DNA from: a virus
Taxonomy: Duplodnaviria; Heunggongvirae; Uroviricota; Caudoviricetes
Reading direction: 5' to 3' (one strand)
DNA length: 64,000 bases
IMG/VR virus record: IMGVR_UViG_3300048091_000424
Shown: positions 20,911-27,514 of the stretch, in pieces
Numbering within the stretch: position 1 is the stretch's first letter
Layout: the number at the start of each line of letters is the position of its first letter
Notes under the pieces: generated by a model
What the model was told of the DNA's origin: nothing
The model's database searches: none
What the model saw: the letters and a program-made list of their open reading frames with translations, nothing else
Translations under genes and position numbers: made by a program

Positions 20911-21516
20911 ATGCGCAAGCTGCCCAACTTGAAAGATCGGTTTTTCTACCACGGATCCCCGTGCTCCATTGATGTCTTCGACTACAAGTTCGCCGAGAAC
21001 GGGCAGGGATTTGGCTTTTACTTCACCACGGATAAATCCGGCGCCGCAGGCTTTTGCTCCGAAAACCCCATCACCAAGGCGGCGGGGTTACCTTTCGTCC
21101 CGACACTTCACAAAGTCCGCCTAAAGGTAGAAAACCCACTGGGTCACCAGCATGTCCAGGCGCTGACGAAGGCCCAATGCCGGGAGATCATTAAACGCGC
21201 TCCAAACCTCGAGGAAAGGCTCTGGAACACCTGGGATGTCGATAGCCTCGGTGCAGACAAAGCGCTGGATGAGGCAGCCAAGCTCTTTAGCGGCAAGGAT
21301 TGCATCCTCATCAGTACACTCAACCAAATCGCCAACGAATTCTTTGAGGGCGAGATGGGGGCGCTCAGCTCTGCCCTGCGCGACGTGACTGGTTACGACG
21401 GCTTGATCCGCACATGCGGTAAAGATGTGACGATCATGGCCTGGTTCCCTGACCAGGTCGAAATCGTGTCTCGCATCGACCCAGCTCTCGAACTGGATGA
21501 GGCGCCTGCACCATGA
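20911..21516 (+). CDS. putative H-Y-E class (PARP/diphtheria-toxin-like) ADP-ribosyltransferase
   Basis: FYHGSP (His-Gly-Ser), GFGFYFTTD (aromatic pair) and NEFFEGEMG (Glu) sit in the order and spacing of the H-Y-E triad. Its stop overlaps the start of the first DLGL gene (ATGA). Confidence 0.4.
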   Translation: MRKLPNLKDRFFYHGSPCSIDVFDYKFAENGQGFGFYFTTDKSGAAGFCSENPITKAAGLPFVPTLHKVRLKVENPLGHQHVQALTKAQCREIIKRAPNLEERLWNTWDVDSLGADKALDEAAKLFSGKDCILISTLNQIANEFFEGEMGALSSALRDVTGYDGLIRTCGKDVTIMAWFPDQVEIVSRIDPALELDEAPAP

Positions 21517-22634
21517 GTGACACTACCCCAAGCGCCTTCGACCAGTTGGTAAAAATCCGCGTTGAAATCCGCAAGCATTGTAAGTCTCAGACTGGCGGCG
21601 ATCCGATGGACGTCTACGACCTCCTGTCCGACTACTGTGACATCTTGGAGCGCCTGGCCACCCAGCGGCAATATTCGGTCATGGCCACGGCCATGGATCG
21701 CCTCAACACCGTCGCTGAAGATTTGTTTCAGCGTCCGCACATGGTGCCGGTGATCGCCGATTTGTTTTTGGAGCGCCTCCCCTTTAGTCACCGCACGGTA
21801 TTCAACCTCGCTGGAAGTTTGACCGGCGTGCTGCGTGAAAACCTGTCGCAACTTGCTGTCGAAAACCTCATAGCCCACGAGGCATTTCTTTCAGATAGGG
21901 ATGAGCATCTCGCAGGTGGCGTTATCCGAAATCTGCTGCGCTATTGCGATAGTCCAGCACCGGCTTTGCAGTACGCGCAGTCGATCCTGCCCCTGTTCAA
22001 TAGTAAGACGTCGGGTTTTGAGTCAGTCCTAAGCGCCATACTCGACAGTAGAACATTGAAAAATATGCCTCATGAGAAATTCCAGCCTTTGGTGGAATGG
22101 GTGTCAGAGCTCGATGTTCTTACCTTGTGCCAAGGGCTAAAGCCGGGCTATGCCACGAAAGAGAGAGTCGCCATCTTCCGCGAAGCGGGCTTACCTCTTC
22201 TCGCCGATGGCCTCTACTATAAAAACAACCAGGTGAACGCTCGGGAGATGATCGAAATCCATAGGCGAACAGGCCTTAAACCCGACGCGGCATACCTTGA
22301 TCAATTCTTCGGCCAGGGTAAAACCCCTGAGGCGAGGGAGCTTCGCGAGCTGCTGAAGTATTCTTTGGCAGTTGAGAACGTTTTCCCACTGGACTGGGAG
22401 GGAATCAAAGCACCGTGGGTCACCAGCTCCCTGGTAGATGCTTTTGCCCGCCTCGAGCAGATGGGTGTAAGACCCCGCTCTCCTGAGGAATGCGAACCGC
22501 TGATTTCACAGTTGGGCGATCACCTTAGAAGCTCGGAAAACATGGACTCGCTGCTCAACAAAAAGACTAAGCCATACCTGCAGATCTCCCATAAATTTAA
22601 CGGCAAGCTGTTTGGCCTAGAACTCGGCCTTTAG
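21513..22634 (+). CDS. DLGL-tail family protein (array member 1; paralog of member 4)
   Basis: Ends ...NGKLFGLELGL*. The C-terminal about 90 aa is highly similar to 25066..26253 (LKYSLAVEN...PRSP.ECEPLIS). Confidence 0.75.
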   Translation: MSDTTPSAFDQLVKIRVEIRKHCKSQTGGDPMDVYDLLSDYCDILERLATQRQYSVMATAMDRLNTVAEDLFQRPHMVPVIADLFLERLPFSHRTVFNLAGSLTGVLRENLSQLAVENLIAHEAFLSDRDEHLAGGVIRNLLRYCDSPAPALQYAQSILPLFNSKTSGFESVLSAILDSRTLKNMPHEKFQPLVEWVSELDVLTLCQGLKPGYATKERVAIFREAGLPLLADGLYYKNNQVNAREMIEIHRRTGLKPDAAYLDQFFGQGKTPEARELRELLKYSLAVENVFPLDWEGIKAPWVTSSLVDAFARLEQMGVRPRSPEECEPLISQLGDHLRSSENMDSLLNKKTKPYLQISHKFNGKLFGLELGL

Positions 22635-22644
22635 GGAATTTTCA

Positions 22645-25069: not shown

Positions 25070-26253
25070 TTATGCCCACTCAGAACGCCCTACCCCCCAT
25101 TGTCCGTGACATCAGCCGGTACAATGACTTGCTCACAATCAATAATGAGTTGTACCGATTGGTTGTGACTGATGACCCGGATCCGCTCCTCGTTCACGCG
25201 CTGATGGTCGACTTCATTCAGGGAATGGATGACCTTGCGACCCAGCGCCTGCATGTCCTGGTGGGGAAAGCAGCCGCGATGATGGATGTGACCATTCTGG
25301 ATCTGTTCAAGCGTCCGGCAATTGCTGAAGTCATTTCTGAGTTGTACTTCCAACATTTTCAGGCACCGATTCGTCTGGTGTTCAGTATCGCTGCCGGGCC
25401 GGAAGGCCAACTGCTGACGGATGCATATAGCGATGAGCTGCGTGATGCTTTGGTGGCTCGGGGCGTCGAGAACTTGATCGCCTACGATGCTTTTACCACT
25501 GACACCGACCAGCATCTCATGGATTCGTTGATCATCCACATTCTTCGACTTAGCGAGCAAACTCAGCCAGCAGTGGACTTGTGCGACGCTATTGTGGGAC
25601 GTCGTAATGACAAAAAAGCAGGCATCGATGTCATATTTTCAGCGGTTTACATCGCCATCCAGGACGCAAAATATAAACCCGACGCTACCAGGCCTTTATT
25701 GGCTTGGATGCAGGGCAGGCAAGCTGATTTGGTCAACCAGATGGTCAATACCAAGCAGGGAATTTGGATGGCTATGGAACTGACTGACTTTTTTCAAAGC
25801 AACGGGCTGCAAGATCTTGCGGATCGCTGGTACCTTCGCTCCAGCTACTTGGATTTTCAGCGTTTGTACGCCATTCATCAGCGCTGTGGCTTGAAACCTG
25901 ATCAGGATTATCTGCAGCAATTCATCGCTGCCGATTGCAGCCCATCCATTAAGCTACTGGGTGACTTGCTCAAGTATTCGCTTGCAGTCGAAAATTTTAT
26001 CCCTGACGCCAGTAAACTCACCTTCAAGCCGACCTGGGTCACCAAATCCTTGGTGGATGCCTTCAACACCTTCCGCGAAATGGGCATTGAACCCCGCTCA
26101 CCAAAAGAGTGTGAGCCACTGATTTCCCTTTTGGCTGGGCATTTGAAAAGCGAAGAAACCATGACTCCCCTAATGGCCAAGGAAATCCAGCCCTACATCG
26201 CGATCTCGAATAGCTTCCAGACTAAAATGTTCGGCATGGACTTGGGTCTGTAG
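25066..26253 (+). CDS. DLGL-tail family protein (array member 4)
   Basis: Ends ...QTKMFGMDLGL*. GTG at 25066 or ATG at 25072, overlapping the stop of member 3. Confidence 0.75.
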   Translation: MIMPTQNALPPIVRDISRYNDLLTINNELYRLVVTDDPDPLLVHALMVDFIQGMDDLATQRLHVLVGKAAAMMDVTILDLFKRPAIAEVISELYFQHFQAPIRLVFSIAAGPEGQLLTDAYSDELRDALVARGVENLIAYDAFTTDTDQHLMDSLIIHILRLSEQTQPAVDLCDAIVGRRNDKKAGIDVIFSAVYIAIQDAKYKPDATRPLLAWMQGRQADLVNQMVNTKQGIWMAMELTDFFQSNGLQDLADRWYLRSSYLDFQRLYAIHQRCGLKPDQDYLQQFIAADCSPSIKLLGDLLKYSLAVENFIPDASKLTFKPTWVTKSLVDAFNTFREMGIEPRSPKECEPLISLLAGHLKSEETMTPLMAKEIQPYIAISNSFQTKMFGMDLGL

Positions 26254-26311
26254 GCCACCACACAAAAAGGGCCATGTAAATTTTTCTGGCTTAAGAATTA
26301 CGGAGTTAACA

Positions 26312-27514
26312 ATGTCAACTGATCCATTTGCCCGGCTCGAAAACATCAACCCCGGCATGGGCCGACAAGCCATGTGCGATGCCATCGTGGATGTCGGCAA
26401 GGCCCTTGAGGCAGCGCTACCAGCGTACGGCAGGATCACCTTGATCTCGCTGAGTCAGCAGATATTACAACTGCGCACGGAGCTGCTGGAAGCATTCCCG
26501 CTGATGGAGGATCCTGCCCCGTACCTGGCGCTGATTTCAGCCCTTCCGCTTGATATGAAGGCAGCACACCAGCTGACCTATGATTTTGGCAAGCTTGGTG
26601 ATGATCCCGGTCATGGGCCGGTGCTTTTTGAATTGACCCGTGCGCTGGTGGATAACTTAAAACGCAACAATACCCTCGAGCGCGAGGCTGAATTTTTCAA
26701 GCACTCACACACCCCTCGGGCAGCTGGAGATATCGTGTGGACAACCACCGATTTTGAAAGGGATTTTGATGACTTTGCTTACCTCCTGCTGGATAGTCAG
26801 GCGAAAGACCCACACTGCTGCCTCGACCTGGTCGAGCACGTATTTTCTTTTTCCATCAATTGCCGCGACCTCAATCTTCAAGGAGGCTTGCTAACGGCAA
26901 TGCTGGCCCTCAACACGACATTCAACCATGAATCCGCATGCTGGCCAGCCGTGAAGCAATGGCTCAAGACCCACGAAGATCGGGTCTGCACGAGCTTGTT
27001 GAGCCAAGGCTGGAGCCGACAATTCAAACCGGAGCTGGCCCAGAAGGCCTTGGCACTTGGCTACCCGAAACTGCACAATGCGATAGTGCTCCGCAGTTGC
27101 CGGCACAATGAAAGCAACTTTCTGGCGCTTAAGCGGTTCCACGGGATCGATCCCGATCAAACCTGCTACGACATCATCTTGAAAAATCATCGTGACGAGG
27201 CCTGTGGAGCAGACAGCACGAGTCTTACAGCCTTGTTGGCGCACGCCCTGGTGTACGACCACCAGATCCCGGAAGACTGGATGATCAAGGCTTCAGACTC
27301 ACCGCTGAAATTGCTGGATAGCGCATATCAGGAAGTCAAAAAGAATGGCTTAGTGCCATCCATTGACAAACTCCACGACTTGTTTGAGAAGTCCTTACGA
27401 AAGTTGCGTAATGATCGAGATTTGACGTGGCTGGAGTCGTCAATATTTGCCCCATTTCTCCGTCAGTCATTGGCCTATCAGGCTGAGCGCTTCGGGCAGG
27501 ATTTAGGCCTTTAG
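26312..27514 (+). CDS. DLGL-tail family protein (array member 5)
   Basis: Ends ...QAERFGQDLGL*. SD ACGGAG. Confidence 0.75.
   Translation: MSTDPFARLENINPGMGRQAMCDAIVDVGKALEAALPAYGRITLISLSQQILQLRTELLEAFPLMEDPAPYLALISALPLDMKAAHQLTYDFGKLGDDPGHGPVLFELTRALVDNLKRNNTLEREAEFFKHSHTPRAAGDIVWTTTDFERDFDDFAYLLLDSQAKDPHCCLDLVEHVFSFSINCRDLNLQGGLLTAMLALNTTFNHESACWPAVKQWLKTHEDRVCTSLLSQGWSRQFKPELAQKALALGYPKLHNAIVLRSCRHNESNFLALKRFHGIDPDQTCYDIILKNHRDEACGADSTSLTALLAHALVYDHQIPEDWMIKASDSPLKLLDSAYQEVKKNGLVPSIDKLHDLFEKSLRKLRNDRDLTWLESSIFAPFLRQSLAYQAERFGQDLGL

Follow-up and report, generated by a model that had tools for sequence, protein, structure and literature searches.

Why should five neighboring genes that diverge faster than the genes around them all end, at the very last residues before the stop codon, in the same short peptide? 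The question is raised by IMG/VR record IMGVR_UViG_3300048091_000424, a 64,000-nucleotide stretch of DNA (hereafter, the window) assigned to the Caudoviricetes, in which a gene for a predicted ADP-ribosyltransferase (ART; 20911-21516, plus strand, 201 aa) is followed on the same strand by a tandem array of five paralogs. Array members m1 (21513-22634, 373 aa), m2 (22645-23841, 398 aa), m3 (23882-25069, 395 aa), m4 (25066-26253, 395 aa from a GTG at 25066, with an alternative ATG at 25072), and m5 (26312-27514, 400 aa) have the C-termini LFGLELGL, AFSRDLGL, AFTRDLGL, MFGMDLGL, and RFGQDLGL, respectively, that is, F-x-x-[DE]-L-G-L and then a stop; the ART lacks this tail. A preliminary description of the locus treated the DLGL tail as a property of the array. 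The tail is indeed present in all five members, but it is not specific to them. A six-frame scan of the 64 kb revealed 14 open reading frames (ORFs) that end in [DE]-L-G-[LM] with Phe at position -7, nine of them outside the array, whereas amino-acid composition predicts 0.003 DLGL endings among the 82 window ORFs of at least 150 aa. Five of the tail-bearing window ORFs have nothing in common with the others that is detectable by blastp, except the tail.

The window is part of a Pseudomonas megaplasmid of ~1 Mb that belongs to the pMPPla107 family. Its CCA-adding enzyme is 87% identical to that of P. silesiensis pPL1 and 53-56% identical to those of the 0.9-1.0-Mb plasmids of Pseudomonas sp. 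FeN3W, P. amygdali pv. lachrymans (pMPPla107), and Pseudomonas sp. Leaf58 (pBASL58). Homologs of the array genes are confined to metagenomes and very large Pseudomonas contigs, including a 1.06-Mb contig of P. serbica and the 1.17-Mb pPL1 of P. silesiensis G3, and a protein identical to m1 is encoded both on a 90-kb Joint Genome Institute metagenome contig and on a contig of >1 Mb. The window carries 11 clustered tRNAs and genes for dCTP deaminase, dihydrofolate reductase (DHFR), RNA ligase, the CCA-adding enzyme, PTH2, a sigma factor, and R2K ATP-grasp proteins; tRNA arrays and the DHFR, dCTP deaminase, RNA ligase, PTH2, and R2K ATP-grasp genes are common to the window and the megaplasmid family. 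The tRNA cluster (33172-35083, plus strand) comprises one Asn, two Leu, three Glu, three Asp, and two Arg tRNAs, with repeated Glu(ttc)/Asp(gtc) units, and is typical of the pMPPla107 family. A jumbo phage origin, which the tRNA array and nucleotide-metabolism genes had suggested, was rejected: megablast and tblastn returned no match in 50,697 phage records, and the best matches were circular Pseudomonas megaplasmids with par/rep and conjugation genes. The pMPPla107 megaplasmids have a GC content of ~53%, carry dozens of tRNAs, and are self-transmissible (PMC6482414); pMPPla107 itself is typed as MPF_I and has a PilV shufflon.

The tail proved to be a feature of the whole replicon. Among the 2338 stop-to-stop ORFs of at least 100 aa in the complete pMPPla107 sequence (971,889 bp), 147 end in exactly DLGL and 163 in [DE][LIVM]G[LIVM], compared with an expected 0.09 DLGL endings; the runner-up C-terminal tetrapeptide occurs eight times, and at internal positions DLGL turns up only 21 times among 497,000 residues. 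Tail genes make up ~15% of the ~1034-1082 genes of pMPPla107 and 20.5% of its DNA. The extended motif is R(-11)-[DE](-10)-x-x-[FLMI](-7)-[GAS](-6)-x-D-L-G-L, with Gly at -2 in all 163 tails, G, A, or S at -6 in 150 of the 163, and a variable residue at -5. The tail is thus a replicon-wide tag, built from [LM]-G-[LMI] immediately before the stop, a residue at -4 that is usually acidic, and a hydrophobic one at -7, and it is carried by ~160 mostly unrelated, soluble, acidic proteins; we regard this descriptive part of our explanation as practically certain. Tail genes are spread over 150-950 kb of pMPPla107; none lies in the backbone for transfer and replication at 0-150 kb, where the par, rep, Dot/Icm, and type IVb pilus genes are found. 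As 106 of the 163 lie in same-strand runs of two to nine genes, the window array is one among many such arrays. The array as first described is correct as written, but its scope was understated, since it is a single case of a plasmid-wide tagged proteome. Long runs of tandem paralogs in pMPPla107 lie at 174362-205173, 251806-263539, 425300-432584, and 542769-552699, with up to nine genes per run, and the largest family numbers 27. Next to these runs, the five window genes make a modest array.

Selection acts on the tail peptide, not on the underlying DNA, because all synonymous codons are in use: six for Leu, four for Gly, and both for Asp, together with all three stop codons. This tabulation rules out a conserved DNA or RNA element at gene ends and with it the nucleotide version of a broader idea, namely that the tail has no receptor and is a structural helix cap, a self-association element, or a translated nucleic-acid element. 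Gly at -2 after a helix does resemble a C-cap; a helix cap, however, would not be expected to be invariant in ~100 unrelated folds, always exactly at the stop, and to be conserved while the bodies fall below 20% identity, and we consider a receptor-free tail very unlikely.

The bodies to which the tag is attached are mostly unrelated. By blastp, the tail-bearing proteins of pMPPla107 form 98 clusters, >70 of them singletons; the three largest have 27, 15, and 7 members. No Pfam family was matched by any of 88 cluster representatives, HEAT, ARM, and TPR repeat profiles gave no match to tail-bearing proteins, and nearly all of the tail genes of pMPPla107 are annotated as hypothetical. A transmembrane-like segment is absent in 167 of 177 tail-bearing proteins, and their median isoelectric point is 5.5. 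Structures were predicted for two of them. The model of m1 is an alpha-solenoid in which the tail follows directly on a folded helix, with no long disordered linker. The weaker AlphaFold2 model of the window protein encoded at 29841-31406 (pLDDT 71) is mostly helical, and Foldseek returned for it only nonsignificant matches to karyopherin-like solenoids. Both can be read as alpha-solenoids and, as modeled, look like protein-binding scaffolds rather than enzymes.

How far does the tail extend beyond pMPPla107? One genome per species (596 Gb) was scanned for DNA encoding R-D-x-x-hydrophobic-[GA]-x-D-L-G-L-stop, and the sole replicon with many matches was pMPCFBP13716, a 971-kb P. fluorescens megaplasmid with ~30 loci. 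The remaining matches were single and mostly due to chance, except for a small family of Pseudomonas chromosomal proteins (115-145 aa) that end in RDxxFAADLGL, with a neighboring 116-aa gene that ends in FAADLGV; on the chromosomal contigs, endings of the form RDxxFAADLG[LV] are found at L031 6807-7154, L084 4505-4903, and L114 8801-9151 and 10001-10390. These genes lie in defense islands, adjacent to genes for TIR, Thoeris ThsB, Lamassu LmuB, integrase, and KfrA. In the FeN3W plasmid (L118; CP136011.1, 760-810 kb), positional counterparts of the tail genes, one of them a detectable homolog with 25% identity, end in D-F-S-L, D-L-Q-I, D-L-E-I, D-L-S-I, and E-F-G-L. HMMER searches of 1.84 billion representative proteins recovered just 34 relatives of the array family, and these end in [LM]-G plus one residue, which is hydrophobic in all but one, the exceptions to the pattern being one unrelated repeat protein and one truncated sequence. 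In the more deeply branching of these lineages the tail is kept as R-L-E-x-x-[LM]-G-[LMI]. By the FeN3W and deeper-lineage endings, the core that is conserved across lineages is hydrophobic-x-hydrophobic, placed at the free C-terminus and in most cases with Gly as x and an acidic residue just upstream. Full-text literature searches found no description of the tail, although most subscription journals lay outside their scope and an earlier description is possible.

Very probably, then, the tag is a functional docking or sorting peptide. It would be a short peptide whose free C-terminus is read by one common receptor, and function would reside in the variable solenoid bodies, which would bind targets and diversify under conflict. 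That positions -3 and -1 are fixed while -2 varies between lineages would fit binding in an extended conformation, for which such alternation is typical. One familiar class of docking peptide deserves mention here, the beta-sliding-clamp-binding motif, for which the consensus is QL[SD]LF or QLxLxL and which in Escherichia coli Pol IV takes the C-terminal form QLVLGL. In its C-terminal [SD]-L-x-L the tail agrees with the latter half of this hexapeptide, Gly at the fifth position included. The defining Gln-Leu of positions 1 and 2 is absent, however, being replaced by the small residue at -6 and the variable residue at -5; the A, S, G, or Q that some lineages have at -4, and their M at -3 or -1, fit poorly; and ~160 competitors for the clamp would be implausibly toxic. 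We consider this reading the least credible of those weighed here, and highly improbable.

If the tag is a docking peptide, what might the receptor be? Signals of the Dot/Icm type are acidic C-terminal sequences, with an E-block and a hydrophobic residue at about -3; in Legionella the cytoplasmic domain of DotM binds the acidic tails of effectors. pMPPla107 encodes a type IVB secretion system (T4BSS) with DotA/TraY, DotD, DotG, DotH, DotI, a type IV coupling protein (T4CP; 959870-962416), and a neighboring protein with a DotM_C domain (963007-964374; E=2e-34). Apart from this Dot/Icm-type machine, no secretion apparatus annotated on pMPPla107 is known to recognize signals at the C-terminus. 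In pPL1, the close relative of the window, DotA is 39% and DotM 53% identical, and DotM identity is 53-71% among the tail-bearing Pseudomonas lineages versus 27.6% in Vibrio. The D or E at -10 and -4 and the Leu at -3 of the tail would be compatible with the Dot/Icm grammar, although its motif is far more fixed than known signals. Whether the type IV secretion system (T4SS) of pMPPla107 also secretes effectors was left open by Baltrus et al. in 2011 (PMC3136466). Because it is a machine that reads C-terminal signals, has a DotM_C protein beside the T4CP, shows conservation of DotM, and is the subject of this open effector question, the T4BSS coupling complex is the best candidate for the receptor. 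Under such a model the receptor would be the Dot/Icm-type coupling complex of the plasmid, that is, the T4CP and the adjacent DotM homolog, and the tagged proteins would be its secretion substrates, which would reach recipient bacteria or eukaryotic cells together with the DNA or before it. We propose this identification of the receptor tentatively, as a possibility rather than a probability.

Several observations weigh against a T4BSS receptor. Known Dot/Icm signals are degenerate, whereas the tail is a near-fixed motif, and in the FeN3W lineage the ending is looser than DLGL, mostly without Gly. No tail-bearing ORF corresponds to any of the pMPPla107 genes annotated with effector-like domains (ankyrin, Sel1, patatin, Fic). 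In the replicon from which the window derives, the T4BSS genes lie outside the 64 kb and are seen only in its relative pPL1, and the proposed link between tail and machine is drawn from sequence comparison. No T4SS genes are present within 10 kb of the small chromosomal family, and the occurrence of DLGL on island proteins fits a host-encoded receptor better. Finally, the ~0.9-Mb megaplasmids of Vibrio show no tail enrichment in the 2 x 50 kb sampled. These plasmids of V. parahaemolyticus and V. vulnificus (NZ_CP062152.1, sampled as L110 and L119, and three others, 0.88-0.94 Mb) carry a related, distant T4BSS, with DotA at 33% and DotM at 27.6% identity, and are similar in gene content, which combines housekeeping with phage-like genes. 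They encode SmpB, DHFR, XseA, Sir2, PTH, NADAR, and ATP-grasp proteins and have gaps in CDS annotation like those at tRNA clusters, which suggests a wider megaplasmid superfamily that crosses genera.

The same observations lend themselves to an alternative in which the tail tethers proteins to a cytoplasmic hub, such as an AAA+ unfoldase or protease, a chaperone, or an ATP-grasp-type ligase that modifies C-termini, with the solenoids as interchangeable adaptors for targets of the host or of rival elements. Such a hub would account for the tail on small defense-island proteins that have no T4SS nearby, and a genus-specific partner would fit its presence in Pseudomonas lineages and its absence from the 100 kb of T4BSS-sharing Vibrio relatives. 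Alpha-solenoids are typical protein-binding scaffolds, and the direct attachment of the modeled tail to a folded helix, as opposed to a long disordered linker, also favors a hub, as do the R2K and Ter-type ATP-grasp genes scattered among tail genes. Because enzymes of this class act on carboxylates, ATP-grasp proteins are candidates for acting on tagged C-termini. Such genes (R2K clade families 2/3 and Ter-associated) are found in the window at 7477-8361 and 42873-44021, both on the minus strand, and at several pMPPla107 loci, among tail genes. Parallels for such a hub would be the ankyrin/PRANC (F-box-like) arrays of poxviruses and the peptide at the C-terminus of SspB that binds ClpX. No candidate hub was identified, however; to our knowledge, the tail is unlike the known ClpX, Lon, and SspB motifs; and no precedent is known in bacteria for a single cytoplasmic hub served by a tag on 15% of a proteome. 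pMPPla107 encodes its own transfer-messenger RNA (tmRNA) at 837885-838265 (L020 37885-38265), adjoining its own smpB, with the tag ANNDNFDAPVALAA. A connection between the tail and this tag was considered and dismissed, as the tag is an ordinary ...ALAA, which leaves no link to that degradation route. On this evidence, we think a cytoplasmic hub unlikely, though worth keeping in view.

Two further export or packaging routes were rejected. The D-hydrophobic(3) motif of type I secretion is not matched, the residue at -2 being Gly (S, Q, E, or D in FeN3W), and there is no RTX or other Pfam match; where a cognate ABC/MFP transporter would be expected, only an EmrAB-like pair of a major facilitator superfamily transporter and an HlyD protein is annotated on pMPPla107. 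As for encapsulin cargo, which calls for an HK97-fold shell gene in the same element, the 1034 annotated features of pMPPla107 include no encapsulin or capsid (annotation only, no profile search). A more radical possibility, which we find doubtful, is that [LM]-G-[LMI]-COOH is the address label of an undescribed sorting or tagging system, with a single receptor outside any known secretion pathway and with the tandem arrays as a diversifying library of target-binding adaptors. The receptor could then be either a hub, of host or plasmid origin, that recognizes free C-termini or an amidoligase for which these ends are the sites of conjugation.

Comparison with known systems places the tag between several of them. 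Like the Dot/Icm effectors of Legionella and Coxiella, whose signals are read by the DotL-DotM coupling complex, the tagged proteins have their putative signal at the extreme C-terminus of unrelated, often helical-repeat bodies, with acidic residues and a hydrophobic residue near -3, form a very large repertoire (here ~160), and share a replicon with a Dot/Icm-type machine that includes a DotM_C protein. The tag differs in being a near-invariant linear motif, whereas the Dot/Icm signal is a compositional bias; moreover, the machine here is carried by a conjugative megaplasmid of free-living or plant-associated Pseudomonas, and the tail also occurs on chromosomal island proteins with no T4SS in their vicinity. 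In marking a sizeable and unrelated fraction of a proteome with a short, fixed peptide at the free C-terminus, the tag resembles peroxisomal targeting signal 1 (-SKL-COOH) and similar labels, but that signal is eukaryotic, is bound by a TPR receptor, and directs import into an organelle. Poxvirus ankyrin/PRANC arrays are likewise tandem, fast-diverging alpha-solenoids of a large mobile genome that combine a variable target-binding body with a conserved C-terminal docking element, although PRANC is a domain of ~50 aa that binds Skp1 and the tag has only 4-12 residues. Encapsulin cargo-loading peptides, such as the ...GGDLGIRK of Thermotoga maritima, are C-terminal peptides with an L-G-[IL] core on unrelated cargo, but they need not end at the carboxylate, where the tag ends exactly.

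The array itself, seen against its relatives, shows how the tagged proteins evolve. It is a lineage-specific tandem expansion of one fast-evolving alpha-solenoid family within a conserved block of ART, paralogs, 170-aa gene, and DHFR. Downstream of m5 in the window lie a conserved 171-aa gene (27593-28108, plus strand) and DHFR (28174-28662, plus strand), which together close the block. In pPL1 the order is ART, five members, 171-aa gene, DHFR, and PgpA, followed by two tail-bearing genes on the opposite strand. Between the window and pPL1, the ART is 91.5%, DHFR 85%, PgpA 81%, and flanking genes 81-92% identical, and m1 to m5 are 56, 62, 82, 61, and 63% identical, respectively. In four deeper lineages (L120, 44.6% GC; L122, from P. 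putida; L123; and L124) the ART keeps its position at 39-41% identity, the 170-aa gene retains 56-61% and DHFR 53-55%, and the family members only 18-27%. Tail-bearing proteins therefore diverge faster than their gene neighbors while retaining the tail. The protein encoded at 29841-31406 has an ortholog beside DHFR in every lineage examined, including pMPPla107, where the ART homolog (36% identity) is not followed by the array family.

The preliminary description had also inferred paralogy of m1 with m4 and of m2 with m3, together with repeated duplication and shuffling inside the array. Pairwise alignment by blastp confirmed both pairs (m1 and m4, 35.5% identity over 380 aa, E=4e-75; m2 and m3, 37.1% over 391 aa, E=3e-82). 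As matches also cross the pairs (m1 and m3, E=6e-6; m2 and m4, E=0.003) and m5, the most divergent, matches each of the other members (E=1e-8 to 1e-4), the five form one family. Repeated duplication is upheld as a lineage-specific process: the proposed comparison of copy number among relatives revealed variation from one to five copies after the ART, namely one in L120 and L122, two in L123 and L124, and five in the window and pPL1. Relatives of m5 lie elsewhere in other lineages, upstream of the ART on the opposite strand; L122 has two m5-like copies placed divergently upstream, L123 and L124 have two copies upstream, and no further copies were seen in L120, the window, or pPL1. There is no sign of shuffling beyond duplication and divergence.

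The junction between the ART and the first paralog is itself conserved. In the window the ART stop and the m1 start share ATGA (21513-21516). The same 4-nt overlap recurs in L120, L123, and L124, at ART identities as low as ~40%; the overlap in L122 is a single base, and in pPL1 the last base of the ART match is also the first of the m1 match. Since overlap or abutment is kept across these loci, the ART is coupled in translation to the first paralog, and the two make up a conserved pair, which suggests that the ART works with, or under the control of, its solenoid partner. In the model favored here, the ART could act together with the coupled solenoid or be regulated by it. The head-to-tail arrangement of the five plus-strand genes downstream of the overlapping ART gene, as first described, is borne out by the ORF listing. 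A second 4-nt overlap, between m3 and m4, depends on the choice of start: with the GTG at 25066 the genes overlap by GTGA, and with the ATG at 25072, which other gene callers choose, they are separated by 2 nt. The spacers are 10 nt between m1 and m2, 40 nt between m2 and m3, and 58 nt between m4 and m5. A scan for promoters and terminators placed just two plus-strand sigma-70-like sites at the flanks of the block, a consensus match (TTGACG-18-TAAACT, 20850-20879) 5' of the ART, a possible operon start, and another consensus match just 3' of the array (27533-27560); no terminator-like sites were found in the array spacers, and site totals were not above those of shuffled sequences. The operon that had been proposed is thus compatible with the scan, but as the counts do not exceed those of shuffles this is weak evidence for a single transcription unit.

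The identity of the upstream gene, read in the preliminary description as an ADP-ribosyltransferase, was substantiated by a match of the 201-aa protein to the Pfam family ART-PolyVal (PF18760; E=6.2e-9, 37.2 bits against a gathering cut-off of 31.2), in which residues 12-183 cover profile positions 9-130 of 140; precomputed annotation assigns its orthologs in L120, L122, and L124 to this family as well. By eye, the sequence shows an N-terminal FYHGS and a GFYFT segment; a PDB sequence search with the ART gave no real match. Like the PF18760 domains of the polyvalent proteins of phages and conjugative elements, the window ART matches above the cut-off and resides on a conjugative element, but it is a stand-alone protein of 201 aa coupled to a solenoid gene, whereas those are domains in giant multidomain proteins. 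The ART of L120 itself ends in ...NDFSL.

This coupling, kept while the ART falls to ~40% identity, could also mean that a toxic ART is paired with immunity or antitoxin proteins from one or more of the coupled solenoid genes, the array being a set of diversified immunity paralogs. Tandem, fast-evolving paralogs beside a toxin domain are typical of polymorphic-toxin immunity loci. The ART, however, is the slow-evolving partner (91.5% identity, against 56-63% for paralogs), the reverse of what is expected of a toxin in an arms race, which makes the toxin-immunity model less likely. Moreover, most of the ~160 tail-bearing proteins have no toxin neighbor, the ART homolog of pMPPla107 lacks the array family downstream, and the shared tail is left unexplained. 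Pfam describes ART-PolyVal domains as conflict effectors. They form part of the large multidomain polyvalent proteins that phages and conjugative elements encode, and they are not known as toxins of toxin-antitoxin systems. We judge the toxin-immunity model improbable.

The other tail-bearing ORFs of the window are dispersed along its length. Two on the minus strand, 29841-31406 (521 aa, AFANDLGL) and 31403-32485 (360 aa, AFSADLGL), have bodies unrelated to the array. Two adjacent plus-strand genes at 37280-38308 and 38327-39277 are distant paralogs (19% identity, E=1e-6), and a second adjacent plus-strand pair at 49850-51289 (DLGM) and 51321-52667 (DLGL) shares 44.7% identity. The remaining three are single ORFs at 48-557 (plus strand, VFGEDLGL), 44109-44792 (plus strand, LFAIDLGL), and 62346-63665 (minus strand, AFSKDLGL). 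Upstream of the ART, in a segment of 41-44% GC between a 468-aa gene and the ART, lies a plus-strand gene for an 807-aa P-loop ATPase (18344-20767) with only weak, subthreshold matches to AAA_22, Zeta_toxin, and BrxC/D. No PLSDB plasmid carries it, nor does the pPL1 locus, which is syntenic in other respects; the gene was therefore probably inserted into the window recently, and it is possibly a defense gene. Around the ART, these plasmids carry a rich toolkit for ADP-ribosylation and NAD metabolism, with genes for ADP-ribosylglycohydrolases, Sir2, NADAR, NUDIX, and NAD-salvage proteins; in addition, L123 encodes a WGR-PARP_reg-PARP protein (18869-20197) and pMPPla107 a WGR-domain protein (897893-899191).

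On balance, we lean toward the explanation as a whole, in which a tagged megaplasmid proteome carries a docking peptide, perhaps read by the T4BSS. Megaplasmids of the pMPPla107 type add ~1 Mb of DNA per cell, more than 70% of their genes (776 of 1080) are hypothetical, and they impose phenotypic costs that are well documented and unexplained. Since 2011, moreover, the question of whether their Dot/Icm-like system serves conjugation only or also protein secretion has stood open, without candidate substrates (PMC3136466). Should the tag be a T4BSS signal, it would represent the first known case in which a fixed consensus peptide defines an entire Dot/Icm substrate repertoire, that repertoire would be the first effectorome found on a conjugative plasmid, and the tag would provide an unusually clean and portable secretion signal. 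If it is not a secretion signal, it points to a hub in Pseudomonas that reads C-termini, and were the system an undescribed one, a plasmid of ~1 Mb would mark about one gene in seven with its label. A fixed tag of 4-12 residues on ~160 proteins offers one organizing principle for a fifth of the DNA of the plasmid.

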